A program made the position numbers and the translations under genes. Below, piece by piece: positions 1 through 12,044 of a stretch of DNA of 64,000 nucleotides. Source of the stretch: a virus. Its lineage: Duplodnaviria; Caudoviricetes. Under the pieces are notes generated by a model. The model did not search any database and was not told where the DNA came from. It saw only the letters and a list, made by a program, of their open reading frames with translations. The stretch is from positions 1 through 64,000 of the IMG/VR virus record IMGVR_UViG_2974779332_000001. One strand, written 5' to 3'. How positions within the stretch are numbered: position 1 is the first letter of the stretch; every line of letters begins with the position of its first letter.

Positions 1-59
1 GACAGGGACATTACAAGTCTTAACAAGCATTTGACCACCACATTCCAAGCCCTATCAAG

Positions 60-235
60 CATTCTGCCCCCGAATCCAAGGTAAATAAGGCTTTCAACCA
101 TCGATATTTTATGGCCAAAACAGCCCCAAAACGCTGAAAAATCACGATAAATCCCCCATTTCAAGGCAAAACGGACAGAAACGCCTGGTTTTCCCCACAA
201 TTTAACAGTCATTCGTAAAGAGACCCAAATCGGGG
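60..235. other. Phased A/T-tract (intrinsically curved) DNA
   Basis: A/T tracts start at about 83, 92, 105, 117, 128, 137, 149, 158, 168, 179, 189 and 199, a period of ~10-11 bp. No credible ORF. Confidence 0.7.
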
Positions 236-558
236 CATCATTCAGCCCCCAAATCTGACAGTCATCCCCCAAATCCATGGCAAAATACACTGTGATGCCT
301 TAGAATCGAAGCCGGTAGCCTATGAATCGTAGATTGGGTGTCGATTCTCCCTATATACACGACACACTCCTTGATTGGATTGAGATGAGTGATAGATTTG
401 GCCCGGTAATCGAAGGAACCCTTCGTAAATGAACCTATAAGTATCAACCCATTAGTAGAGTAGTTAGTTCTATGTATATAGGGGACAAGGACACCAACCA
501 CTACCGGCCCTCAATCTCAGATTGTCTTGTCTCGCATGTATATAGCAGCACACAACAC

Positions 559-586
559 AAAAGCCACCCCGAAGGGTGGCTATTTT
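559..586. terminator. Bidirectional intrinsic terminator
   Basis: AGCCACCC-CGAA-GGGTGGCT, flanked by AAAA on the left and ATTTTT on the right. Confidence 0.8.
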
Positions 587-774
587 TACATCCAAATATC
601 TCAGCAGAATTTTTCAAACTCTGGGGAAATTCAGCCCTTGCTTAAAGGGGAAATGTCTGGCAAAATTTGGAGTCCTTCGTAAAGGGGTTCCAATTCGGAC
701 ATCCGCGACATATCGCTGTTGATATTGGGAGTGATTAGGTTACTTAGGCTAAGTAAGTGTCCGGGCCGGACAAT

Positions 775-866
775 TGAAAGGTCCCTGGGTTGCGGCCGAC
801 CTTCCGCTATTTAACCCCTCGCCAGATTGACTGATAGGGGACCCAGGGACACACTTTGTACCTTAC
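775..866 (-). ncRNA. Candidate structured small RNA
   Basis: Lies downstream of TTGACA-17-TAGTAT (901..873). A 10-bp closing stem GTCCCTGGGT/ACCCAGGGAC encloses two hairpins. No ORF. Confidence 0.5.
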
Positions 867-903
867 TCTTCTATACTAGCAAGAGCCTGATAGCTTGTCA
901 ACA

Positions 904-1137
904 TCACTTGGTGTAGTCAGGGAACAGACGTTCCAGCTCCCAGTCTTCCAAGAGATAGGCAGAGTGAGTGGGAGAGGGTACGGGGATACTGACAGCCCTT
1001 CCCCACATCTTTGCCGGTTCGTTCCACACCTTGCCGATGAAAGAGTTGGGAGTGATTCCTTCCACCTTGAAGTAGAAGCTACCCGAGAGAACCAGGTCGC
1101 CCATGGACAGTTCGACACTTTCCTTTACCGGCTTCAT
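904..1137 (-). CDS. Hypothetical protein, leaderless
   Basis: 77-aa ORF whose ATG is 6 nt downstream of the TAGACT -10. Confidence 0.75.
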   Translation of the reverse strand: MKPVKESVELSMGDLVLSGSFYFKVEGITPNSFIGKVWNEPAKMWGRAVSIPVPSPTHSAYLLEDWELERLFPDYTK

Positions 1138-1249
1138 GAGTAGAGTCTATCAGTACAAGGAGGCCCTGTCTACCCACCGGGCCATCTGTCCGCCCCGGCC
1201 AAAATCCCCTAAACCCTTTCGGGCCTAGGGGACTCGGACCTTTCCTGGA

Positions 1250-2262
1250 TTAGCTGGCCAGGGCCAGGACCGCCTTACGGATGCGGTTCTTCTCGACGTT
1301 CACGACCGGGTCGAAACCGCTCGCAGCGATGAACAGGTTGTCCACGTTGCCCCCGCGCGGCATACGGTACCAGTCGATACGCTCGGTCAGCGCGTTGAGA
1401 GCACCGGCCATCGTGCCACCCAGAGACTGAGTGGTCTTGGGACCCTCACCCGTGTCGGTGAAGATGCCCATCAGGATGTCCCGCTTGCTCTCCCACTTGA
1501 CCATGGAACCCTTCACGTCCTTCTCAGGACGCGGGTACAGGTCCGCAATCAGAGCGTCGAACTGGTCCTTCGTGCACTTGGCAGCGGCCAGAGCGGTCAT
1601 CTCACGCTCGAACTCATCCGCGTACGCGAACGTGATGTTCAGAGCCTCGCGCGCCTGCGCCATGCGACCCTCAATGGTCTGCGTGTGGCGCATCTTGAAC
1701 TGCTGCTTCACACCGTTACGGAGTGCGAAGTTCAGCGTGTTCTGACACACGACGCGAACCGGAGTGATGGACGCCTGGACGGCAACGGAGCCGTCGTGAG
1801 AGGTGTTGACCAAGAGATACATCTTGGTCACGTCGTTGTCACCGATGACGATGTCACGAGAGATGGACAGAGAACCGAACACCACGCGACCGTCACGGAT
1901 GGAACCAGCCGTCTCCCACGTGCCACCACCCGCGAGGATGCCGTCACCGAAGCCGAACAGCTCCTCATTCTGGACGACCTTGTACCCTCGCCCACGGTGG
2001 CCAGAACGTCGTTCCGACCGTTGAACGGGTTGGTACGGACGACCATGTACGGCTCCGTGACGAAGTCGTAGTTGTCGGAAATCATGCCAAGGATGTCCTT
2101 GACGGATTCCAGTCGAACGTCCCAGCCGTTGAGGTGGGCCAGCGCCAGCATTTCGCTGGTCGTCAGCTCACCCTCGAACACGGTTCCGAGGTTGTGCCAC
2201 GCGGGCTCGTTGCGAGAAGCGAACGCGACCTGACCCTTGGAACCAATCTCAAGACCGTGCAT
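1250..2262 (-). pseudogene. DUF932-family phage/plasmid protein split by a 1-bp frameshift near 1987
   Basis: The N-terminal frame has PAWHNLG..VVRTNP..LATVGE. The other frame continues RYKVVQNEELFGF..WETAGSIRDGRVVF..NTSHDGS..TPVRVVCQNTL. SD GGAGG precedes the ATG at 2262. Confidence 0.8.
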
Positions 2263-2454
2263 TTTTGCCTCCATGGCAGATTGGTGTAAGGGCCGGTTTC
2301 CCTGCCCTTCGATGTCTCTAGTCTAGCAGTAGTCTGGGGGCGATGTCTACCCACCTGGTGTGTCTGCTATGTCCGTTTTGCCCTTTATGTTCCGGCCGCC
2401 CCGGACACACGAAAGCCCCTCCGAAGAGGGGCAGTGTGTCTAACCTACTAGAGA

Positions 2455-2886
2455 TTAGAAGGGCGGCTCGTCGCTGTAGTAGGAACCGGCCGCGTCCAGC
2501 TTCCGGCAGTAGTCGTCCACGATGTCCTTCGTGTCCTTGAGACCGAGACCGGTCATGGCGCGCAGCTCCTTGATGACCGGAATCTTCCGGTCGGAACCGT
2601 GCTTGACCACGATGGAAGCGACGTTGTCGTGGGCGCGCTGTACGGCCATCTCGTAGACCCGACGCAGCTTCGTCAGCTCCCACTCGTCGGGCGTGGGAAC
2701 GGAGACCAGGGACTTGCCGACCTCGTGACCGGACTTGTAGCCCTCGTCGTAGCTGCTGTTGCTGACCTCGTTGACCTTGCTCTGGTGCAGGGCCAGGATG
2801 TCACGGGCCATGCTGACCGCGTCGTTCAGGGAGAGCGTGGAGTCGCTACGCTCGTTCAGGATGTCGATGATGTCGCCGAGGTGCAT
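2455..2886 (-). CDS. Protein with ribosomal L7/L12 C-terminal-like domain
   Basis: KIPVIKELRAMTGLGLKDTKDIVD matches the bL12 CTD motif KIxVIKxVRxxTGLGLKEAKDLVE. SD AAGGAG. Confidence 0.8.
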   Translation of the reverse strand: MHLGDIIDILNERSDSTLSLNDAVSMARDILALHQSKVNEVSNSSYDEGYKSGHEVGKSLVSVPTPDEWELTKLRRVYEMAVQRAHDNVASIVVKHGSDRKIPVIKELRAMTGLGLKDTKDIVDDYCRKLDAAGSYYSDEPPF

Positions 2887-3009
2887 GACCACTCCTTCTC
2901 TTAGGGGCTCCTTGCCCCTTTCGATGTCTCTATCTTAGCAGTACAAGGGCTCTGTGTCTACCGGTCGAAATTTGTCCGGGCCCGACAGGGCCCCGAAGGG
3001 CCCTGTGGA

Positions 3010-3450
3010 TTACCAGCGGACACCCACACCCTCACCGGAGATGGATTCCACGATGTACTTCGCGGTACGCAGGTCCAGGGTGGGAAAGTTCTGTCGCAGG
3101 TGCTTGATGCACCGAATCTTGGTGTTCAGGTCGTAGTGGCTGAACTCACCATTGGCCCAGATGCTCGCACGGGTGACCAACTGCGTGTGGTCCTGCTCAG
3201 CGGTGTAGTTCGCGTTCCGCTGTCCCGAACGTCGCCCCGCCTCGAAACCCTCGTCATAGGCGTGCGTGACGCGCGTGTCGGTCTCCTTACGGGCCAGGTC
3301 CCAGGCGTTGTTTTCCACCTCGATGACCCGCTGCGAGTGCAGGTCTTCCACGATGCGGGCGACCTCGAACGCCTTCTTGAGGCTCATCCGGATGCCGTTG
3401 TTGTGGAAGATGCGAACGAGACGGTCCGAGTCCAGGGTCCACAGCGACAT
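3010..3450 (-). CDS. Paralogue of 2455..2886 with a divergent L7/L12-like domain
   Basis: KIRCIKHLRQNFPTLDLRTAKYIVE, plus the shared N-terminal SLxxAxxxARxxxxLH and YDEG motifs. Confidence 0.7.
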   Translation of the reverse strand: MSLWTLDSDRLVRIFHNNGIRMSLKKAFEVARIVEDLHSQRVIEVENNAWDLARKETDTRVTHAYDEGFEAGRRSGQRNANYTAEQDHTQLVTRASIWANGEFSHYDLNTKIRCIKHLRQNFPTLDLRTAKYIVESISGEGVGVRW

Positions 3451-3584
3451 GATGTCCTCCTGTCTTAGGGAGCTTGTCTCCCTTTCGATGTACTAAGCTT
3501 AGCAGCCATCGGGAGCAGATACAAGCCCAAAGCCAAAGTGTCCGGGCCCGACACGGGCCCCTCATGTCAAGGGGCCCGGCAGGG

Positions 3585-3920
3585 TTAGGGGTTCGTGTTC
3601 CCTCTCTTGAGAATGATTTGTTCGATGACGAATTTGGCATCCATCATTCGATTGAACTCAGCGTCAGAGCGGCTTTCCTTTCTGCCTGCCCATGCATTCA
3701 TGATAGCCACCACGAATGCGAACAGAACATCTTGCACAGGCTCAGGGTAGGTAGTCAGGAGGTAGGCGAATGCATTCACGTCGAATGAACGCTTATCCAT
3801 TTCCTCCATAAGCCTGTTTGCCAGTCGCTCATACGAGCCAGGGCGAGGGTTGACCAGTCGCGCACCCTCATACATGTCAGGCACAATCAGACTGGTCTGA
3901 CGGAAGGGGTCACGTGCCAT
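3585..3920 (-). CDS. Hypothetical protein
   Basis: 111-aa ORF, last gene of the Lsr2 cassette. Confidence 0.75.
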   Translation of the reverse strand: MARDPFRQTSLIVPDMYEGARLVNPRPGSYERLANRLMEEMDKRSFDVNAFAYLLTTYPEPVQDVLFAFVVAIMNAWAGRKESRSDAEFNRMMDAKFVIEQIILKRGNTNP

Positions 3921-4071
3921 CGAAATCCTCTGTTGTACCGTAGCCGTCAGATACGCTCACAGACAGGCCCAGCACCTTTGCCAGAAACTCGGCCGTAGCC
4001 GTAGCAAAGGGCCAGGCCCCATCGTGGGCGTCATCATCAGGAGTCTCAATTTCCAGGATGATGTTCGCCAT
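3910..4071 (-). CDS. Small acidic hypothetical protein (53 aa, not in ORF track)
   Basis: MANIILEIETPDDDAHDGAW...DFDGT*. It fills the gap between its neighbours and overlaps the next start. Confidence 0.65.
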   Translation of the reverse strand: MANIILEIETPDDDAHDGAWPFATATAEFLAKVLGLSVSVSDGYGTTEDFDGT

Positions 4072-4080
4072 GTCCCTATC

Positions 4081-4596
4081 CTATCGCGTGTGAACCTCAA
4101 CGTCCATCCCGAGCACCACGGGGGAGCCGCAGTGGCAGTGAGACAGGGAGTAACCGCACTTGCAGACCTCCCGCTCACTCAGGACGATACGCTTGTTGCC
4201 GTACCAGGCGGTGTACTCCGTACGGCTGGAACGGGTCGGGGCAGCGTGCGGACGCACGTCCTTACCGGTCACCTTGACGTGAACACCCGGCTCAGCGGGC
4301 TTGACGTCCGGGTTGTCCGCCTTGTAAGCGGCCAGCACCTCAGCGGAGAGGCGACCACGGGCGGACACGGTGAGACCCTTGGAAGCGGCCCATGCGCGAA
4401 CGGTCTTGGCATCGAACTGTCCCGCCTTGGGAGCGGAAGCGACGACCTTGCGCGGAGTGGCGTTGGTGTCAGAGAACACCTTGCCCTCACCCTCAGCCTT
4501 GGCAATGGCCGCGTGCGCTTCGGCACTCATCCGGCCACGGGCGTCAGCCTTGGCGAGACCCAGCGAAGCGGCGTAGGCGCGACGGGTCATGTTCAT
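4081..4596 (-). CDS. lsr2: Lsr2-like DNA-binding protein
   Basis: VRAWAASKGLTVSARGRLSAEVLAAY is the Lsr2 C-terminal RGR AT-hook domain. A second degenerate copy (ARGRMSAEA) is at the N-terminus, with a Cys/His-rich tail. Confidence 0.85.
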   Translation of the reverse strand: MNMTRRAYAASLGLAKADARGRMSAEAHAAIAKAEGEGKVFSDTNATPRKVVASAPKAGQFDAKTVRAWAASKGLTVSARGRLSAEVLAAYKADNPDVKPAEPGVHVKVTGKDVRPHAAPTRSSRTEYTAWYGNKRIVLSEREVCKCGYSLSHCHCGSPVVLGMDVEVHTR

Positions 4597-4720
4597 TGTG
4601 GGTTCCTCTCCCTTGGTGATGTCTCTAGTCTAAGGCATGGAAGGGGGCCGCGTCAACACGTCTAAATGTCCGTTTTGCCCCAAATGCCGGTTGTCCGGGG
4701 CGGCCCGAAGGCCCCCGCTG

Positions 4721-5455
4721 TCAAGCCTTACGACGACGGGGAACCTTGGACGCGAAACGAATGTCAGCCTTACCAAAGATGCAAAGGCCGCATGTGAAGC
4801 ACGCACCACCCTTTTCGGTGATAAGGGGAATGCGCTTGGCATTCTCAGGGCAAATAGCGCCAGGCTTGCCAGTCTCGGCAAGCATGAATTCCTTACCCTG
4901 GTCATGCGTTTCTGCCAGATAGGCAAGACGCACAAAGGGGTAAATCTCCTGAGTACCCAACGCAGCCTCTTTGTTCTCACTGTCTACACTCAGGTACACA
5001 GAGAGGTTAGGCACATCTTCCAGATAGGCCACGTACGCGAACGAACGTGTGTAAATCCAGAATTGCACGTCAGGGAATCGCTTGCACGTTTCCGCAAGGG
5101 CGTACGCGTAGTCAGAGGAAAAGATATCCCCATCGGCGTGCCAGCGGAATACCTTACTGATGTTGTGCTTTGCGCATTCCTGCGAGAATTCCGCAATCAT
5201 GTCAGTGAGCAGAGAAATCATCTCACCGATAGTTGCATCCTTCAACAGGTTCCAATTGTGCAATGCCAACTCACGGAATGCCGGATACATCTTTTCCAGC
5301 TTACCGGCATAGCAGACGCCTTCACATACACTTGTTGCGCCGGGGCAAGAATAGACCTTGCCACTGGGCAAAGAAAATGCATTCCTGAGAAGGGACTGAG
5401 TGCCAGCCTTGTTGACACGCGCAGTCGTCTTGCGGTCGTGAGAGCGCTTGAGCAT
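4721..5455 (-). CDS. Gp88-like (radical-SAM-like Fe-S) protein
   Basis: FSLPSG..SCPGATSVCEGVCYA, FRWHADGD, FWIYTRS and a C-terminal CxxCxxC. SD AAAGGA before the ATG at 5455. Confidence 0.7.
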   Translation of the reverse strand: MLKRSHDRKTTARVNKAGTQSLLRNAFSLPSGKVYSCPGATSVCEGVCYAGKLEKMYPAFRELALHNWNLLKDATIGEMISLLTDMIAEFSQECAKHNISKVFRWHADGDIFSSDYAYALAETCKRFPDVQFWIYTRSFAYVAYLEDVPNLSVYLSVDSENKEAALGTQEIYPFVRLAYLAETHDQGKEFMLAETGKPGAICPENAKRIPLITEKGGACFTCGLCIFGKADIRFASKVPRRRKA

Positions 5456-5555
5456 GGCAGTCCTTTCGTTGACGTAAGACGAGTCTAGCAGACATGAGGG
5501 ACGTAAACAAGCCCTCGATATGTCCGATTTGCCCGTTGTCCGTCCCCGACAGGGG

Positions 5556-5750
5556 CTAGAGGATAACGACGGAACGGTGAGAAGCATATGAGATTAGGTT
5601 CTCACGCTCAGTGGCTTCGTTGTAGAAAATCACCATTCGCTTGCCGCTGTAAGAGCCGATGTCACGAACGATGTGACCTTCCATGTAATATCCGCTATCG
5701 AAACGGACGCGCTCGTTGGGCTTGATTTCAGAAAAAGCCTTACGCTGCAT
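5556..5750 (-). CDS. Small hypothetical protein
   Basis: Starts MQRKAFSEIKP after GAGGA and overlaps the stop of the upstream gene. Confidence 0.65.
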   Translation of the reverse strand: MQRKAFSEIKPNERVRFDSGYYMEGHIVRDIGSYSGKRMVIFYNEATERENLISYASHRSVVIL

Positions 5751-6045
5751 TGCGTTCCTCCGAGCTGTAGGGCAGTTCCGTGTTACGAACAATGGTGCCA
5801 AGAGAGACAGCGTTGATTGTCTTGTGACCAAGAATCCAAGCCATCACAACACGATGCTGACCATTGTACACAGTGCCATTCTGAAAGTTGATAGGCATCT
5901 GAATTCCGTCACGCTCGCATGACTCAATGAATTCATCGCTCATCTCAAAGAAAAGCTGAGTGAACAGGTCCATCGTGCTCTGACCTTCCTCGCGGTCTGC
6001 GAAGTCGGCACGGGCAACGATTGCGTCTACACTCAGCTTCCTCAT
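5740..6045 (-). CDS. Minimal ParB/Srx-like domain protein, leaderless
   Basis: ESCERDGIQMPI..VYNGQHRV motif. The ATG is 7 nt from the -10. Confidence 0.7.
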   Translation of the reverse strand: MRKLSVDAIVARADFADREEGQSTMDLFTQLFFEMSDEFIESCERDGIQMPINFQNGTVYNGQHRVVMAWILGHKTINAVSLGTIVRNTELPYSSEERNAA

Positions 6046-6137
6046 GTTGTAGAGTCTAGCAGACATGACAGGCATACACAAGCACCAATTTCTGTCCGGG
6101 CCGGACATGACTAAGGGCCCCCGAAGGGGCCCGGTGG

Positions 6138-6197
6138 TCAGAAGAGAATCAGAAGAATGAACAGGGCTACGATGAGCCACACCCAACCATCACGCAT
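6138..6197 (-). CDS. 19-aa hydrophobic micropeptide
   Basis: MRDGWVWLIVALFILLILF*, with SD GGGAGGTG. It ends just before the terminator. Confidence 0.55.
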   Translation of the reverse strand: MRDGWVWLIVALFILLILF

Positions 6198-6267
6198 TCT
6201 CGCACACCTCCCTGTACCATGCGAAGTGACAGTACAGATAGAAGTGAAGCCATGTTGCGAAAGCCAT
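6190..6267 (-). CDS. 25-aa aromatic-rich micropeptide
   Basis: MAFATWLHFYLYCHFAWYREVCENA*, with SD AGGAG. Confidence 0.5.
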   Translation of the reverse strand: MAFATWLHFYLYCHFAWYREVCENA

Positions 6268-6275
6268 TACTACTC

Positions 6276-6584
6276 CTACTCGAACAGGCAGATTTCTGCC
6301 TCATCGAATTGCACGTACCATTCGGTCGTGTACTCGATGTCTTCAATGTTCAAAAGCCACGCGCACAGAATCCTGTGGTGACCCTCATAGACCTTGTTCT
6401 CATCGGGCTGATACATGATGGGAGTCTGAATCCCATCGGCCTGAATTGATTCAAGGAAGGTAGGGTTACCAATGAAGAGGTCATCGAACTTCTCTTCGAG
6501 CATCTGCCAGGTGGTGTGGCCCTTGGCCTCAGCATCATTGAAGATAGCCGACTCAATCAGCTTCGCAACAGATACCTTGGCCAT
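6276..6584 (-). CDS. Minimal ParB/Srx-like domain protein
   Basis: ESIQADGIQTPI..VYEGHHRI motif. SD AAGGAGG. Confidence 0.75.
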   Translation of the reverse strand: MAKVSVAKLIESAIFNDAEAKGHTTWQMLEEKFDDLFIGNPTFLESIQADGIQTPIMYQPDENKVYEGHHRILCAWLLNIEDIEYTTEWYVQFDEAEICLFE

Positions 6585-6699
6585 GACCCCTCCTTGGCTT
6601 GATAAGACTACTCTACACGACTACAGGGGCTATGTCTAGTGCCGGGCCAAACTGTCCGGGGCGGCCAAAAGGGGCCCCGAAGGGCCCCCAATGGGTTTG

Positions 6700-6972
6700 T
6701 CAGTCCTCGGAAGTGTCCTTGCTGCTGACCGCCTTGCCCTTCTTGAGAAGGGAAGCGTCACCGAGATTGACCTTACGCCGGGGACGCCCGACGTGAACGC
6801 TGGGGAAACGGGACAGAACGTCACGGGCACGGGTCTCGTCGGCTTCCAGGATGTCGAACCGCTGGAACGGAGCCTTAGTGGCCACCTCACCGAACACGAT
6901 GTCCACGCCCTGGACAATCATGGCCACACGGAGGGAGAGAGCGTGACGAACGGGAACGATACCGGCAATCAT
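6700..6972 (-). CDS. Hypothetical basic protein
   Basis: ORF with SD AGGAG, its own promoter (7086-7115) and a downstream TTCG terminator. Confidence 0.65.
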   Translation of the reverse strand: MIAGIVPVRHALSLRVAMIVQGVDIVFGEVATKAPFQRFDILEADETRARDVLSRFPSVHVGRPRRKVNLGDASLLKKGKAVSSKDTSED

Positions 6973-7101
6973 GTGCACTCCTGTGCTAGAAGTAAGCTGG
7001 GGTATTCAGTTATCAGAGACTTTGGCAGGAAGGGAAAAACCTCGTCTTGCGAGGCCCTGTGGCCTGTCCCCTTGTGCTTAGCTAGAGTCTAGCAGGCTGA
7101 C

Positions 7102-7275
7102 CTACTCGCAGTCAACCAGAATCTCCATGTCGTCCAGGTGGGCGTCAGGAGCCGGGTCGAACTCAAGGAACGTGTCCTCGAAGATGACCATCCAGGCGTA
7201 GCCCTCACGGTTCTTCGGGTTGCACTTGCCACGGTGCATGTCACCCATTGCCGCGCCACACTCGATGCACTTCAT
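7102..7275 (-). CDS. Small Cys/His protein
   Basis: MKCIECG...H...C, with SD GGGAGG. Confidence 0.7.
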   Translation of the reverse strand: MKCIECGAAMGDMHRGKCNPKNREGYAWMVIFEDTFLEFDPAPDAHLDDMEILVDCE

Positions 7276-7405
7276 GAGGTTCTTTCCTCCCTCTCGATGT
7301 TCTAAGTCTACACTAGAGATGCGACAGACACAACACCCAATATTCGTTAGGCTTGCTAAGGTGTCCGGGCCCGACACGGGCCCCGAAGGGCCCGGCGGGA
7401 AGAGA

Positions 7406-7690
7406 CTACTTCTTGCCAGCGCGCTTGTTGCTGTGGTTCCCGTTCATCAGGTTGGTGAAGTCCAGAACGATGTTCTGACGGAAGTTCGTTGCGCCGTGGA
7501 ACTTGCCGTCCTGGTCACGGACCACCACACGCACCTCGGTGTTGCCGAGAGCGGCACCCGGAACCTGCCAGGTCTCCAGTCGGATGGAGAAGGTGGACTT
7601 GGAACCCTTGACCTTGAAACCCTCGGTGAGGGTGACGGAGGAGACGACCTTGTGAGCGGCGTCGGTGACCTTGGCGAGGGAAACGGCCAT
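7406..7690 (-). CDS. Hypothetical protein
   Basis: 94-aa ORF, SD GAGGAG, in its own cassette. Confidence 0.8.
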   Translation of the reverse strand: MAVSLAKVTDAAHKVVSSVTLTEGFKVKGSKSTFSIRLETWQVPGAALGNTEVRVVVRDQDGKFHGATNFRQNIVLDFTNLMNGNHSNKRAGKK

Positions 7691-7834
7691 TTGAAGCTCC
7701 TCAGAGTCTCGCTCGGGGGTTCCTTCCCCCTTGCTGATAGCTAAAGTCTACACGACTCCAGAGACAAGTACAAGCCCTGAATTATGTCCGTTTTGTCGTC
7801 CGGGCCGGACAAGGGGCCCGAAGGCCCCAAGCCG

Positions 7835-8116
7835 TTAGCCCTCCTGCTCAGCCTTGACCTTTTGCAGGTGCGAAAGGTCTTCCAGGGTGCGAGAGATGGC
7901 GTTCAGCGTCTCATACGCTTCCGCCTTGCTGAAACCGATGTATCCACGGTCACCCGTGCCGGGAGCAGCCGAACCACCGTCAACGAACAGACGGTGAGCA
8001 ATGCCAGCCGAAGGGGTGCCCTCCTGGTAGTTCAGTTCGAGAGCGAAGCCCATGCCCTCCCAGTTGCGCTGGTAGCGCTGGATGGCGTTGAGAACGTCAG
8101 TCTTGGTAACCGTCAT
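7835..8116 (-). CDS. Hypothetical protein
   Basis: MTVTKTDV start after GAGGA, in its own cassette. Confidence 0.8.
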   Translation of the reverse strand: MTVTKTDVLNAIQRYQRNWEGMGFALELNYQEGTPSAGIAHRLFVDGGSAAPGTGDRGYIGFSKAEAYETLNAISRTLEDLSHLQKVKAEQEG

Positions 8117-8219
8117 TTCGGGTTCCTCTCCCTCGGTGTAAGACGAGTCTATCAGAGTCCAAGAGCCATTACAACCCACCGGCCAAAATGTCCGGGCCGG
8201 ACCCCGAAGGGCCCGACAC

Positions 8220-8543
8220 TCAGGTCAGCTTAGCCAGAAGCTTGCTGATTTCCTGCCGGAGTTCGCTCTGAGGGCGACGACCACGCTCCGCCTTGAGCGC
8301 ACGCTCAAAGTAGGCACGAAGTTCGGTCTTGTTGTACGGACCTGCGCACTCATCGGTGTAGTTGATGTCCTCGAACGGCTGAGGGCAGGAGCAACCGGAG
8401 TCGCTTGCCACAAAGTACCGTCCTCGGGCCTCCTTCCACACCTGAGTGATGTTGAACTGCCACTGTTCCTGGTCCCAGTCGAAGGAACCCACGTACTCAA
8501 GGTTGGTGAGCAGGACACGGCCGGGCTTAGAGAGGTTTGCCAT
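8220..8543 (-). CDS. Hypothetical phage protein (DSGCSC motif)
   Basis: 107-aa ORF, SD AAGGAG, contains ASDSGCSCPQPFED. Confidence 0.8.
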   Translation of the reverse strand: MANLSKPGRVLLTNLEYVGSFDWDQEQWQFNITQVWKEARGRYFVASDSGCSCPQPFEDINYTDECAGPYNKTELRAYFERALKAERGRRPQSELRQEISKLLAKLT

Positions 8544-8552
8544 GATGTCTCC

Positions 8553-8696
8553 TTAGACGTCTCTACGCTGTACCTTACCACACTTGGAACACTGGCGCAT
8601 CTGAATCAGCGCCTTCCATGTGCCGAGTCTGGGGAAGATGGGGGAATCGAACGTTCCCAACATCGTCTTCCAGTCAGACCATTTGTGGATGTGCAT
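8553..8696 (-). CDS. 47-aa putative Zn-binding peptide (not in ORF track)
   Basis: MHIHKWSDW...RQCSKCGKVQRRDV*, with SD GAGGAGG. Confidence 0.7.
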   Translation of the reverse strand: MHIHKWSDWKTMLGTFDSPIFPRLGTWKALIQMRQCSKCGKVQRRDV

Positions 8697-8805
8697 CCGG
8701 CCCTCCTCGATTTCTTAGTCATAGTCTACACGACCAGATTTTTAGTCGCAAGCCCATTTTTCAAGATTTTTAGTCCGGGGCGGACAGGGCCGAAGCCCCT
8801 TCCGC

Positions 8806-9117
8806 TCACTCCCAGGGCCGGTAGTCAGACCAGCTCGCACCCTCGCGGTTTTCGATGAGGATTTCCACGGTGTCCCCCAGACGGTGATTCACGCTGTACA
8901 GGGAACGATTTGAACCCTGGTAGCGCCTCTGAGTCTTGGCCCATTCGACCGTCCGCTCAGCCTGCCTATGGGAACGGTGAGGCCATGCCTCGATGTTCTC
9001 ACCGTAGTTGAACCACCATCCACCCTCTTCCGACCCTCCACAGGCCCGGTCGATAAGGTAGACATTCACCCAGTGCTTGTTACGCCGACGCTGACCCATA
9101 CGCAGACCCTTGGCCAT
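8806..9117 (-). CDS. Hypothetical protein
   Basis: MAKGLRMG start after GGGAGG, in its own cassette. Confidence 0.8.
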   Translation of the reverse strand: MAKGLRMGQRRRNKHWVNVYLIDRACGGSEEGGWWFNYGENIEAWPHRSHRQAERTVEWAKTQRRYQGSNRSLYSVNHRLGDTVEILIENREGASWSDYRPWE

Positions 9118-9211
9118 GATGTTCCTCCCTTGTCGGTGAGACCAGTCTAGCACCCCGTAATTGGAGATGCAACATGTCTGTAAGGATGGATTGTCATTGT
9201 CCGACCCGGAC

Positions 9212-9515
9212 AAAAAATTCACCTACAAATTCACCCCTGTTTCGAAGGAATTCCCGTAGAAAAACCTTGAAAACAGGGGTGAATTTATTTTGGGCCTTAT
9301 TTTCAGCCGATTTCGACCGTTTCATCCTTGCCTTTTCCGCAAAGGCAGTATTTCGAATGTGTGGCCGAAACAGGCCGAAGGCCCTTTTCGTTGTAGCGGA
9401 AAAGGAGATTTGACAGAAGGGACGAGTTGAAAACCGGAGTTTTCGAGTGAATCCCGTCCCTTTCCAGCAAAAGGGACATGCTGTGGAATCGAACCTGAGA
9501 AACAGCCTTTTTCCG
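9212..9515. other. Non-coding phased A-tract DNA with a 16-bp inverted repeat
   Basis: A/T tracts recur roughly every 10 bp for 300 bp. AAATTCACCCCTGTTT (9227) pairs with AAACAGGGGTGAATTT (ends 9286). Confidence 0.75.
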
Positions 9516-9533
9516 CATCATGTCCCCTTTGGG

Positions 9534-9680
9534 TCAGCCGAGTTCGGACATGTGCGCGTATGCGTCCTCGGTACCGAAGTCAACGGTACGGTCCGCATCC
9601 CGCACGGTGGAGACAGGCAGGGTCATGGTCGTGAACACGCCAGCGTCCACAGCCTGCTCAAGAAGGTCACGAAGGTCCAT
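9534..9680 (-). CDS. Small hypothetical protein
   Basis: MDLRDLLEQ..., SD GAAGGA, promoter at 9715-9743. Confidence 0.65.
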   Translation of the reverse strand: MDLRDLLEQAVDAGVFTTMTLPVSTVRDADRTVDFGTEDAYAHMSELG

Positions 9681-9789
9681 GGTGTGTACTTCCTTCCGTC
9701 TTGGTGATAGCTCAAGTCTAGCGTATGGGTAGGGTGGATGCAAGCCCAACATCTCCGGGATTTTTCAGCCCTATCGTACACGCGCGGGG

Positions 9790-9980
9790 GAAATGTGGGG
9801 AATGTACGTAATGCCCCGTAAAAGGGGTCTATATAGGTATGCCCTATATGGGCGGTATGTACTATATGGGTAGGTATGTACCCATATGCCCCATATGTAC
9901 CTATATGGGTGGGTATGTCCTGAATGTCCGTTTTGTCCACCCCAGATTTGGGGGTGTCCGATTTGCCCCATATGTCGGTC
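9790..9980. repeat. Degenerate 9-10 bp tandem repeat tract
   Basis: ATG recurs at 9839, 9848, 9857, 9866, 9876, 9886, 9895, 9905, 9915 and 9924. CTATATGGG(N1-2)GGTATGT occurs three times. Confidence 0.8.
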
Positions 9981-10088
9981 CGCCCCGGACGTTACCAAGT
10001 CTTTACCTAAAAGACTGCTGAATCTGGGGTTTAGGGCCCGGTGTCCGGGTAGGATGTAGGCATAGCCACTACAGACCAGGGAGACACG

Positions 10089-10526
10089 ATGAACGCCACC
10101 ACCACTCACCAGTGCCGCTACAACAACGAGACTGCCGTTAACGCGCGTATCCGCCGTCAGGTGCTCGCTACGGTGCTGTACCTGGCACAGCTTACGGGCC
10201 ACAGTGACGGGGCCACGTGGGCAACGTGCGTGGGGTGTGGGGAGCGTAGCCACGTGGGCGGTACGCCTAGGGCCATGGACACGTTCAACCTGGGCCACGT
10301 GCTGGCAGACGCTGAAGGTGGCATGTACTGCCCTTGCAACCTGTTGCCTCTGTGCCGTCAGTGCAACGCTGACATGGGTAAGGAAACCCTTACTGATGTA
10401 CTCATTCCGGTTTATGACAACCGAGAGTGCTGGGACGGTAAGCTCATGGCCGACCCTGGCACCGTGGCCGCCAAGCCTGAGAGCAACCGGGGACGGGCCC
10501 GCTGGAACGCCCCTGCTAGCGTCTGA
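10089..10526 (+). CDS. HNH endonuclease
   Basis: CVGCG...LGHVLADAEGG...NLLPLCRQCNADMG. SD AGGGAG. Confidence 0.85.
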   Translation: MNATTTHQCRYNNETAVNARIRRQVLATVLYLAQLTGHSDGATWATCVGCGERSHVGGTPRAMDTFNLGHVLADAEGGMYCPCNLLPLCRQCNADMGKETLTDVLIPVYDNRECWDGKLMADPGTVAAKPESNRGRARWNAPASV

Positions 10527-10540
10527 GACGCTGTGAATGT

Positions 10541-10572
10541 GCCCCCTAGGGTAGTTGCCTAGGGGGCTATTT
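10541..10572 (+). terminator. Intrinsic terminator
   Basis: GCCCCCTAGG...CCTAGGGGGC followed by TATTT. Confidence 0.7.
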
Positions 10573-10751
10573 CATGCCCTCAGAACGGCACACAGGGCTT
10601 TTGAAAAGCGTTTTCATCTGGCCTGGGACCTTCTGCGGAACCTTCCCCGGACAGGTTTGTCAAGGGTTATGGGCGCACTATCCAAATTGTTATTTAACTA
10701 TGCGAAGCATGTATCATACATCACAAAAAATTACTAACATTTGGATTTTGA

Positions 10752-10991
10752 TTAAGGTAACGAATTGATAACGTCCGCCTCGGACAAGCCAACAACATGG
10801 CCGCAGGATTCAAAGCCGATATGCGCTGCATGCTCGAAGCAGATTTCGGTTGTTGTCCATATGGTTGTTGGTTCTGTGCCACAAAATAGGCAGTTGGGAA
10901 GCCCTAGTTCTGCCTTTTGAAGGATTTCGTAATCCTGACAGAAGAACAGAAATTGATTTCTTCCTATATCACTGTCTGTCTTGTCACACAT
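10752..10991 (-). CDS. Hypothetical Cys-rich protein
   Basis: CLFCG...CFEH. The start overlaps the upstream stop. Confidence 0.55.
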   Translation of the reverse strand: MCDKTDSDIGRNQFLFFCQDYEILQKAELGLPNCLFCGTEPTTIWTTTEICFEHAAHIGFESCGHVVGLSEADVINSLP

Positions 10992-11214
10992 CTTCGTCAT
11001 CCATATGGTCTTCGACCGCATCTGACATATCAAAGCTAGGTGGTGGACCGAGAATCTTTCCTTGCATATGAGCCTCATATACTGCTTGAGCCTCTGTTGG
11101 ATTAATACCTCTTGCTATGCAAGTAAGTACATCGTAGATTCTCATTAGCATAATAGCTGTTACTACTTCGGAGGTGCCCTCATCAAACACGCCGGGCGTT
11201 TCTTCGTCATTCAC
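10984..11214 (-). CDS. Hypothetical protein
   Basis: 76-aa ORF, SD GAGGT, GTG start. Confidence 0.75.
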   Translation of the reverse strand: MNDEETPGVFDEGTSEVVTAIMLMRIYDVLTCIARGINPTEAQAVYEAHMQGKILGPPPSFDMSDAVEDHMDDEDV

Positions 11215-11341
11215 TGTCGTCTACCTCTATTACTATGCACATACCTTCTTCTGCGTCAAAGCAGTCTATGTACACATCTCGCACCGGGCCGATTACGTCC
11301 TTGGTTCCTATTTGAACTTCGTAATCAGGACAGTTCTTCAT
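11207..11341 (-). CDS. 44-aa hypothetical protein (not in ORF track)
   Basis: MKNCPDYEVQIG...EVDDSE*. It fills the gap between genes. Confidence 0.55.
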   Translation of the reverse strand: MKNCPDYEVQIGTKDVIGPVRDVYIDCFDAEEGMCIVIEVDDSE

Positions 11342-11354
11342 TCTCTCTATGAGT

Positions 11355-12044
11355 TCATGTACTTTCATTGAAGGGCCTCATAGCTACCGGCCAAATTGGC
11401 ACGGTTAGGTCTCGAACTGCCTGGGCGTAATTCTGAATTTCTAGCTGCGCCTTGTGCTCAAGACGCTCCTTGAGGAAATGCAGAACGGCCGCCAGACTTG
11501 TCGTCCAACGCCAGCGAACATACATACCATATGCAGGTAGGAATAGTCTTGCCTGTTCCGGGGCTAGTCCACTATCCAATGCTTGATTATATAGTGATTC
11601 ACCTTGGGCCAGGAATTCCTTTAGCATGTCGGTATATTGTCTTGAAGTCATGGGGTCAGCGTTATCTCCACTACCCTGCTTCTTGTTTGCCGGGGCCATT
11701 CTCCATTCATCAGGAATGTGATATACAGGCTCCTCGGTTACATACCGTCTTGATGACTCGTTCCATCCAATTTGGTCATCAAGATGGGTACTGGCAACAG
11801 TGTACTTCCACCACTGCCGGGCCACAAATAGTGGCGCATATACTTCAAACGTCAGCGCAACATGACGAAAAGGGCTGTATTCATTGTTACGAATTAGGTA
11901 ATTCAACAGACTCTCGTCACGGTCGCTGAATTCCTGACTTTCCTTGGCGTAGGAAACACGTGCAGCATTTACAATGGACAAATCGGAGCCCATGTGGTCA
12001 ACCAGCCGAACGTATCCTTGGTCAAGAACGTCTATTTTTGTCAA
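11355..12044 (-). CDS. thyX: Flavin-dependent thymidylate synthase
   Basis: IVNAARVSY, SPFRH, NESSRRY, PEQARLFLP and AQLEI motifs. Confidence 0.95.
   Translation of the reverse strand: MTKIDVLDQGYVRLVDHMGSDLSIVNAARVSYAKESQEFSDRDESLLNYLIRNNEYSPFRHVALTFEVYAPLFVARQWWKYTVASTHLDDQIGWNESSRRYVTEEPVYHIPDEWRMAPANKKQGSGDNADPMTSRQYTDMLKEFLAQGESLYNQALDSGLAPEQARLFLPAYGMYVRWRWTTSLAAVLHFLKERLEHKAQLEIQNYAQAVRDLTVPIWPVAMRPFNEST

Follow-up and report, generated by a model that had tools for sequence, protein, structure and literature searches.

Long terminal repeats with small early genes are home to host-takeover and anti-defence tools in large lytic phages, and the timing of such blocks is poorly known outside SPO1 and T5. 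SPO1 genes are reportedly arranged as many short operons, each with a strong early promoter for the host sigma factor. The accessible text of PMC10531801 gives the SPO1 host-takeover module as 24 genes in a 13.2-kb terminal redundancy, and that of bioRxiv 10.1101/866236 describes conserved non-coding repeats and palindromes in the T5 repeat, with an HNH gene in some phages. Streptomyces phages of cluster BE, whose direct terminal repeats (DTRs) of about 11 kb hold 20-25 open reading frames (ORFs), have been likened to both T5 and SPO1 (Hughes et al. 2018, PMC5764925); that paper holds nothing on promoters or repeats within BE terminal repeats. A third relevant system is the promoter/stem-loop cassette (PeSL) where, according to the accessible text of PMC2839356, a terminator stem-loop is combined with a strong early promoter of the host type in front of functionally uncharacterized small genes, and recombination between the repeats shuffles these genes. 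Here we analyze the first 64,000 nucleotides (the window) of IMG/VR virus record IMGVR_UViG_2974779332_000001, a 133,090-bp Streptomyces phage genome of cluster BE, with a focus on an array of small genes whose junctions carry a 15-bp palindrome, TGTCCG-N3-CGGACA (the box). The box is restricted to the terminal repeat, does not evolve like an RNA hairpin and has switched in concert between lineages. We tentatively read it as the binding site of a phage-encoded protein. No description of the box was found in the literature on these phages, including PMC5764925 and PMC7650747; in the latter, the words palindrom, promoter, motif and terminator have 0 occurrences each.

Array organization and distribution of the box

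The closest public records are 86 cluster-BE Streptomyces phages of the family Stanwilliamsviridae (genus Samistivirus and relatives), each with ca. 80% identity and two match places. The genome carries an exact 10,714-bp DTR whose core (701-10600) has a G+C content of 57% compared with 47-49% in the rest of the genome, ca. 9 points richer. Based on its coordinates (758-9991), the array lies inside this terminal repeat. It consists of about 20 small early ORFs in 16 units, all located on the minus strand and oriented toward the left genome end (Table 1).

Read on the minus strand, the units follow the order hairpin, palindrome, spacer, promoter, and most of them end in a hairpin with a UUCG loop. 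This confirms the main observation of an earlier sequence-only reading, which had proposed about 15 cassettes, each with a terminator, a box and a promoter: we count 16 units and 15 boxes in the DTR. The TTCG-closed GC hairpins named there are present (loops at 2997, 6125, 6681, 7387 and 7822), as are the promoters with a -35 element, a 17-18-nt spacer and a TAGACT -10 element, of which 16, all on the minus strand, were accepted. These were picked by hand from 25 pattern rows, leaving out in-gene and overlapping alternative rows, and their form fits the Streptomyces principal-sigma consensus. Of the exact pattern TTGNNN-17/18-TAGACT, the repeat has 10 copies, every one on the minus strand, and the other 111.7 kb have 8, while the distribution of TTGACA-type promoters is reversed (1 vs 47). 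The UUCG-loop hairpins (n = 10) have stems of 4-9 bp and ten different 5' arms.

The perfect box, TGTCCGNNNCGGACA, occurs three times in the window and in none of 100 shuffles; in addition to the copies at 758 and 6093 noted before, a third one at 9198 had been overlooked. Allowing up to two mismatches, 19 matches were found in the window, 16 of them within 758-10786, whereas shuffled sequences averaged 2.2 and never exceeded 8. The whole genome contains 35 matches: 15 per DTR copy, one at 10772 and only four in the unique part of 111.7 kb, all of them weak with two mismatches. In the sequence-only reading, no full box had been seen outside the array region, and an equal density genome-wide was named as evidence against the idea. 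Its density is not uniform, neither in this genome nor in relatives, where the first 11-13 kb compared with the remaining 100 kb or more hold 12 vs 0 boxes in MulchMansion, 11 vs 0 in Bmoc and 15 vs 0 in Karimac. The box is thus confined to the terminal repeat in all four lineages tested. The 19 GC hairpins examined in the unique region have T-runs and are in some cases directly followed by a promoter, but never by a box. Since terminators and promoters outside the repeat both come without it, the box is not a general component of either the terminators or the promoters of this phage. Lone half-sites, AAA(A/T)CGGACA, show a similar restriction: seven are found in the first 10 kb and none elsewhere in the window (0.2 expected), and they are also kept in lineages with other box types.

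Box and promoter stand in a preferred spacing. Among 113 distinct promoter variants from phages with the box type found here (S type, see below), CGGAC precedes the -35 element by at most 70 nt in 91. The distance from the end of CGGAC to the -35 element is 11-16 nt in 50 of these 91 and 21-29 nt, ca. one helical turn further, in 28. This spacing places the box center near -55 to -70, roughly on one helix face. In the window itself, the box ends 11-45 nt upstream of the -35 element, with the hairpins upstream of the box.

Box evolution, candidate reader and competing explanations

We compared the DTRs of 18 named relatives and three metagenome relatives. All of them share the order of hairpin, palindrome, spacer and promoter. 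The palindrome itself is lineage-specific, with at least six types, and uniform within each genome of the 18 relatives. The S type, TGTCCG-N3-CGGACA, is found in the present phage and seven Samistivirus phages, the B type, GGGCCG-CCC-CGGCCC, in Bmoc and Riptide, and the K type, GCCG-CCC-CGGY followed by AAAAGATCTT, in five Karimacvirus phages. Tomas and Naboo carry the T type (GACCG-GCC-CGGTC), Coruscant the C type (GGCGCC-C-GGCGCC) and Mandalore the M type (TGCGCC-C-GGCGCA). The spacer is biased in orientation, nearly all copies of the K and B types reading CCC on the sense strand. In Coruscant, a second palindrome (TAGATG..CATCTA) comes after the box and the box-to--35 spacing is 23 nt (four junctions, by eye); Mandalore has a similar but less regular second palindrome. 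In Bmoc, 11 junctions have B-type boxes although the DTR is elsewhere 72-83% identical to that of the present phage. Warpy (S type) and Karimac (K type) were both isolated on Streptomyces griseus ATCC 10137. Phages from one host strain thus differ in box type, which makes a host factor unlikely and led us to exclude the box as a site for a host factor or the RNA polymerase alpha subunit. Concerted change of the palindrome across lineages instead points towards a phage protein reading the box. As a separate observation, Riptide carries a single degenerate S-type box (TGTCGGGCCAGGACA) at a cassette junction (~3075-3100) in an otherwise B-type array, which looks like a recently imported junction that is as yet unconverted.

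Within the S type, pairing was analyzed across seven genomes for 97 boxes and for the UUCG hairpins next to them (n = 64), omitting Evy because it is nearly identical to Targaryen. For the box (42 distinct sequences), 83.7% of cells were paired compared with 84.9% in shuffles, 468 of 500 shuffles reached the observed value, and none of the six pairs showed a compensatory change. The UUCG hairpin (27 distinct sequences), serving as a positive control, was 90.5% paired compared with 67.6% in shuffles, a value reached by 0 of 500 shuffles, with compensatory changes in 6 of 7 pairs. Box cells deviating from the commonest pair (n = 46) comprised 5 U-G wobbles and 41 combinations that form no standard pair. 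Variants were one-sided, positions 3 and 5 often being G with unchanged partners, and the promoter-side half, CGGAC, was better conserved than its counterpart, which in many cases also serves as 3' arm of the UUCG hairpin. In the Peebs group, positions 5 and 11 differ among boxes with no pairing preserved, and such boxes may be midway through a switch. Positions G2, C4, G6, G12 and C14 were invariant over all 97 sites, to which the site filter contributes. With compensatory evolution seen in the hairpin and not in the box, the box looks like a site read by its sequence and not like an RNA hairpin. It is apparently retained by sequence within a lineage, while both halves change together at all sites between lineages, as would be expected for the site of a dimeric protein with shifted specificity. 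Simple homogenization of repeats is unlikely as the hairpin only a few bases away stays diverse.

Taken together, our favored reading, at slightly less than even odds, is that the box binds a protein of the phage through which the first-expressed genes are coordinated or insulated. The region would be the first-expressed (pre-early or "host-takeover"-type) array in the long DTR of a lytic cluster-BE phage, its 16 units with about 20 small genes presumably being driven by promoters of the principal-sigma type of the host. The box would be read as DNA sequence, with two half-sites as the probable units of recognition, and its reader would be a phage protein with a specificity that may have drifted along with all of its sites. 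This protein would act jointly on all DTR units, resulting in shut-off or mutual insulation after the early phase.

The sole candidate reader found, and one to which the evidence weakly points, is an HNH endonuclease-family protein encoded inside the DTR and divergently from the array. It matches Pfam HNH_5 below the curated cut-off, and its gene is located within the DTR in all 87 records that hold it. In 16 genomes of the S, B, K and T types, the lineage's own box (up to two mismatches) precedes the HNH start codon by 97-108 nt. For unannotated Naboo the distance is 154 nt, counted from the start of the tblastn match, and in Coruscant and Mandalore it is 385-399 nt. An own-type box also lies 240-270 nt downstream of the gene in about 9 of 18 genomes. 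In five S-type genomes, a box-like half-site falls into the spacer of a promoter-like TTGCAT-16/17-TAGGAT motif upstream of the gene. Further, the HNH protein of B-type Bmoc shows 67-72% identity to K-type copies and only 57-59% to S-type copies, whereas the Lsr2-like, GP88 and ParB-like proteins of Bmoc side with the S type (78 vs 53%, 82 vs 69% and 90 vs 45%, respectively). Eight other ORFs from Karimac-like segments of Bmoc contained no DNA-binding Pfam family (one is vWA-TerF-like), in a screen that is blind to a regulator whose specificity shifted by few substitutions; the underlying scan covered positions 1-113 kb, the last ~9.6 kb of the unique region of Bmoc lying outside the comparison. 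Scanning IMG/VR with an HNH profile yielded 24 loci, mostly from the same isolates, and no further lineage with discordant HNH and box. Four loci were from metagenomes, three representing the S, M and K types with a matching HNH protein, the fourth (36% identical) coming without a box array. Given one discordant lineage and positional evidence, we consider the HNH protein a lead rather than a demonstration.

Other candidates were rejected. A methyltransferase (Bmoc gp91) appeared to co-vary with the box, yet it is 85-87% identical in S-type MulchMansion, Mildred21 and Squillium and so follows the genome backbone. Its gene is located between a small helix-turn-helix gene and a thymidylate kinase gene in Bmoc, MulchMansion, Mildred21, Squillium and Karimac; the present genome is without it (~67186-67210). 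Use of the box as an HNH site for degrading host DNA was also discarded, the estimate being about one full S-type site per 8-Mb genome of 72% G+C. In the present genome, a 34-nt inverted repeat (79% complementary; 9978-10011 and 10752-10785) brackets the HNH gene and straddles the DTR boundary at 10714. It is composed of the box and GTTACC..TTACCTAA, of which relatives share only the box. With repeats of 15-18 nt in Bmoc and Tomas and none in four others, we dismissed the idea of a conserved terminal inverted repeat around the gene.

Several points weigh against the box as the operator of a phage regulator. It goes with terminators and not only with promoters: even the last transcription unit has a box at its end (758), where no promoter comes next, and the promoters without an upstream terminator (9720, 7091 and 878) are all without an adjacent box. 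A site centered ca. 55-70 nt upstream of the transcription start is not in the usual position for a repressor, and promoters that fire first need no activator. The fixed box-promoter spacing may simply be inherited by modules that arose through duplication. With orthologues among them, neither the 113 promoter variants nor the 97 box sites are independent samples, and the sites were gathered with a 2-mismatch filter which favors the consensus. Another difficulty is the candidate itself, the only one for a DNA-binding regulator. HNH proteins are nucleases, and the catalytic His and Asn as well as the zinc-binding Cys residues are invariant in 33 homologues. A Foldseek search of the confident HNH model (mean pLDDT 81.8) against the PDB returned no matches at E <= 0.001; the top weak rows were Cas9 HNH domains, a nicking HNH, Hpy99I and PacI, all nuclease domains. 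Comparing the HNH sequence with solved structures gave nothing meaningful. Lastly, the link between HNH protein and box type comes from one discordant lineage (Bmoc, Riptide and Anedea), the B and K boxes are similar and not identical, and the HNH gene is only part of what is discordant, as 48 of 1127 windows of Bmoc (22 segments) are nearer to Karimac than to S-type genomes (present phage and MulchMansion). The operator of one regulator proposed in the sequence-only reading fits the evidence in that non-hairpin evolution, restriction to the DTR and concerted switching speak for it; the only candidate for the regulator, however, is the HNH nuclease-family protein. If that protein were the reader, this would be an unusual use of the HNH fold. 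That HNH protein and palindrome form a co-evolving specificity pair marking every pre-early unit, with the protein acting as a global regulator or a nicking enzyme, is a rather unlikely reading. If true, the nicking-enzyme version would make the terminal repeat a hotspot for cassette exchange, and the six or more box types would be compatibility groups for regulation or recombination among co-infecting BE phages.

Alternatively, the box could be a target that is nicked or cut by the HNH nuclease, driving recombination that swaps cassettes inside one phage or among co-infecting phages, or the copying or processing of the repeat. It would then behave as a nuclease-associated repeat rather than a transcription signal. 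We regard this as rather unlikely. The invariant catalytic residues, the joint change of HNH protein and box type in the Bmoc lineage, own-type boxes flanking the gene in about half of the genomes (with the inverted repeat in this one) and the S-type-like box retained at a junction in Riptide all fit, and T5 relatives with terminal repeats of ~10 kb carry specific nicks according to the accessible text of PMC10644984. However, cutting 15 sites in its own genome would harm the phage unless the enzyme is under tight control or limited to nicking, relatives do not conserve the extended inverted repeat, and the set distance between box and -35 element is left unexplained.

Breakpoints bear on this alternative from both sides. 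Using the ends of alignments from an all-against-all BLAST of nine genomes as breakpoints, 58 of 460 (13%) fell within 10 nt of a box center compared with a random expectation of 3%, and the numbers peaked at the edge facing the promoter; corresponding values were 7% vs 3% near the -10 hexamer and 7% vs 2% near the hairpin loop. Because a conserved motif by itself ends alignments, the enrichment is confounded and no proof of site-specific exchange. The clearest events lie elsewhere. Window positions 2352-2908, which hold the second L12-like cassette, are missing from Mildred21, the alignments on either side overlapping by 52 nt within the promoter/5' untranslated region (5'UTR) repeat, while MulchMansion shows a precise loss of 8549-8700, including the 47-codon ORF 8553-8696, with no box involved. 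As to whether gains and losses in aligned relatives break at the box, a check proposed in the sequence-only reading, alignment ends show this confounded enrichment and the clearest events break away from the box. Gene shuffling via homologous recombination between repeated regulatory modules, as with PeSLs, fits best. The modules are paralogous, sharing spacers such as TTTGGCC(C)GG and 5'UTRs, and RecA-like and resolvase proteins are encoded according to the annotation of relatives.

It is quite improbable that the box acts in RNA, be it as a second hairpin aiding termination without a U-tract, as protection of the 3' end or as a site bound or cut by a phage RNA-binding or RNA-cutting protein. 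Such a role would account for its constant location at the 3' end of units, within ca. 10 nt of the hairpin and often in place of a U-tract, for the 6-bp stem that it forms in a small-RNA candidate (below), for a palindrome kept through lineage changes and for the orientation bias of the spacer in K and B types. Against it stand the pairing results, where the box does no better than its column composition and the neighboring hairpin passes both tests, and the prevalence of non-pairing over wobble deviations. Further, the left half is often part of the UUCG stem so that both stems cannot form together, right half-sites occur alone in excess, and terminators outside the DTR come without a box.

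Even less probable is a functionless passenger in a duplicated terminator-promoter module, kept similar by recombination between copies. Although paralogous modules, the documented 52-nt overlap and the annotated RecA-like and resolvase proteins provide the means, homogenization should also affect a hairpin 0-10 nt away, which has 10 different 5' arms in 10 cases. In addition, several lineages show joint change of both box halves at 10 or more sites, between flanks that retained the lineage sequence, and five box positions are invariant, with the filter contributing. Finally, an integron-like site at which a site-specific recombinase excises or inserts cassettes, the second proposal of the sequence-only reading, is largely refuted and barely credible: the box does close each cassette on its 3' side and is uniform per genome and lineage-specific, as attC sites of chromosomal integrons are, but at 15 bp it is far shorter than attC, every cassette has its own promoter, junctions lie in promoter repeats or without boxes, and the absence of an integrase noted for the window extends to tyrosine and serine recombinases (PF00589, PF00239) in the complete 133-kb genome, control genomes being matched.

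Genes and small RNA of the repeat

Six of the 20 DTR proteins have Pfam matches above the curated cut-off. The two paralogue pairs noted in the sequence-only reading are real: both L12-like proteins match phrog_5819, one of them also the Pfam L7/L12 C-terminal domain (E = 4e-9), and both ParB-like proteins match phrog_4635. "ParB-like" is the annotation used in relatives, and neither protein of this pair has a Pfam match at E <= 0.01. The L12-like early paralogues may interfere with translation; the accessible text of the Riptide announcement mentions ribosome-related genes. The Lsr2-like protein has an Lsr2 DNA-binding domain at residues 62-93, preceded by a similar stretch, and a Cys/His-rich C-terminus, and is without the typical Lsr2 N-terminal domain. 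Near position 1987, the present genome has one base fewer than MulchMansion and Targaryen (GAG-GGT vs GAGCGNT), splitting a conserved 338-codon gene into ORFs 1828-2274 and 1250-1885, which is either a sequencing error or a real frameshift. At 7086-7125, the promoter of the next unit lies inside the last codons of ORF 7102-7275 (..LVDCE*), without terminator or box, an arrangement conserved in Bmoc, Coruscant and Karimac.

The near-consensus promoter at 873-901 may give rise to a phage small RNA. The candidate, a structured and apparently non-coding transcript of ca. 100 nt that ends in box 1, has a fold of -49.4 kcal/mol (z = -2.58). Its conservation extends over the S, B and T lineages, with compensatory changes in 12 of 29 predicted pairs (10 sequences). 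An Rfam scan of 1-11500 gave one sub-threshold chance match only and left the candidate unmatched. A Ro-like RNA-binding protein is also encoded by relatives. Non-coding positions 9780-10030, flanked by the first early promoter and the divergently oriented HNH gene, are dense in short direct and inverted repeats (CCCATATG, TATGGGTAGG and CATATGGGGC) and hold two AAAWCGGACA half-sites. By analogy with the T5 repeat blocks, this may be an entry-related region, or else an origin.

Table 1. Coordinates of features in the terminal repeat and its vicinity (window positions unless stated otherwise)
Feature	Position	Strand	Remarks
Direct terminal repeat	1-10714		exact copy at genome 122377-133090
UUCG hairpin, then T-rich run	562-581	minus	without box; conserved in S-type relatives
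Candidate small non-coding RNA	745-872	minus	promoter TTGACA-17-TAGTAT at 873-901
Box 1, perfect	758-772		closes candidate small RNA; no promoter downstream
Box, 1 mismatch	1187-1201
Box, 2 mismatches	2393-2407
Box, 1 mismatch	2973-2987		TGT drawn into stem of preceding hairpin
Box, 1 mismatch	3539-3553
Box, 2 mismatches	4692-4706		left half overlaps hairpin 3' arm
Box, 1 mismatch	5537-5551
Box, perfect	6093-6107
Box, 1 mismatch	6653-6667
Box, 1 mismatch	7362-7376
Box, 1 mismatch	7797-7811
Box, 1 mismatch	8189-8203		overlaps hairpin 3' arm
Box, 1 mismatch	8772-8786
Box, perfect	9198-9212		spacer ACC on plus strand
Box, 2 mismatches	9977-9991		98 nt upstream of HNH start codon; left arm of 34-nt inverted repeat
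Box, 1 mismatch	10772-10786		58 bp outside DTR; 246 nt downstream of HNH; right inverted-repeat arm
Half-sites AAA(A/T)CGGACA	2370, 4667, 5521, 7785, 9925, 9955	minus
Half-site AAA(A/T)CGGACA	168	plus
16 promoters, (TTGnnn or TAGACA)-17/18-TAGACT-like	873-9743 (span)	minus	-10 first bases: 9720, 9149, 8728, 8151, 7750, 7310, 7091, 6615, 6058, 5487, 4632, 3501, 2937, 2325, 1149, 878
Nine UUCG-loop GC hairpins	2415-8801 (span)	minus	loops: 8794, 8208, 7822, 7387, 6681, 6125, 4709, 2997, 2425; box after each, directly, after a few bases or overlapping 3' arm
Other DTR terminators	~1215-1250, 3560-3590, 9240-9290		longer stems or other loops
ORF (first of array; array span 904-9671)	904-1137	minus
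ORF, frameshifted	1250-2274	minus
L12-like	2455-2886	minus
L12-like	3010-3450	minus
ORF	3585-3920	minus
ORF	3910-4071	minus
Lsr2-like	4081-4596	minus
GP88 family	4721-5455	minus
ORF	5556-5750	minus
ParB-like	5740-6045	minus
ParB-like	6276-6584	minus
ORF	6700-6972	minus
ORF	7102-7275	minus
ORF	7406-7690	minus
ORF	7835-8116	minus
DUF7574	8220-8543	minus
ORF	8553-8696	minus	47 codons
ORF	8806-9117	minus
ORF	9303-9521	minus
ORF	9534-9671	minus
HNH endonuclease-family gene	10089-10526	plus	inside DTR, divergent from array; phrog_7426

Comparison with known systems

In SPO1 and in the present phage alike, about two dozen small, mostly unmatched genes fill most of a long terminal repeat, and the array shares with the SPO1 module its long terminal redundancy and small genes in short operons with host-type promoters. 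SPO1 differs in host phylum and shows no protein homology, and host takeover is a putative role for the array. To our knowledge, SPO1 has no repeated palindrome between terminator and promoter. T5 and the BE phages are siphoviruses of 120-135 kb with DTRs of ~10-11 kb and many tRNA genes (PMC5764925). The T5 repeats, however, are located in three non-coding blocks, in contrast to the BE box at gene junctions. Two-step injection, a feature of T5, is not known from BE phages, in which the DTR and promoters are present. No Pfam families of dmp, A1 or A2 counterparts were found among the 20 DTR proteins, where distant homology is possible.

The analogy with PeSLs (Arbiol et al. 2010) drawn in the sequence-only reading is apt for the array as a whole, although it had overlooked the location in a terminal repeat. 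The repeated composite of promoter and stem-loop is found here (16 promoters, UUCG hairpins), and the 52-nt promoter/5'UTR overlap marks one event of gene loss or gain. As far as the accessible description of PeSLs goes, their stem-loop overlaps or adjoins the promoter boxes, whereas the hairpin here lies 30-80 nt upstream; they include no third element, in contrast to the separate, lineage-specific palindrome between hairpin and promoter; and they are scattered in hyperplastic regions of T4-type phages rather than placed in a terminal repeat.

With regard to the box itself, the stoperators of cluster A mycobacteriophages and the KorB operators of RK2 are similar in that one short site occupies many gaps of a replicon. 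Both are read by one element-encoded protein, with a specificity that varies between related elements. Stoperators are asymmetric sites in temperate phages bound by the immunity repressor, and KorB is a ParB-family protein with a helix-turn-helix domain. Unlike both, the box is a GC-rich palindrome that a lytic phage carries in its terminal repeat only. REP elements are extragenic palindromes at gene 3' ends, uniform per genome, with repeats flanking the RAYT gene, and thus resemble the short 3'-end palindromes and flanked nuclease-type gene seen here. RAYTs, however, are HUH/Y1 proteins whereas the flanked gene here encodes an HNH protein, REPs number hundreds genome-wide compared with 15 boxes in one 10-kb block, and the box stands in a fixed relation to terminator and promoter. 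Integrons are defined by an IntI-type tyrosine recombinase and promoterless cassettes ending in attC, and the array differs on both counts.

One short site marking the units provides a handle to find the reader protein, to switch the whole block and to test if gene exchange between phages is limited by box type, and the modules are compact, self-contained promoter-terminator parts for Streptomyces engineering. In conclusion, the array represents an early-gene module in a terminal repeat, similar in kind to SPO1 or T5 and with PeSL-like cassettes, an ordinary kind that is undescribed for these phages. What it adds to these known systems, and what appears to be new, is a DTR-restricted palindrome that is probably read by its sequence and seems to have switched in concert between lineages.

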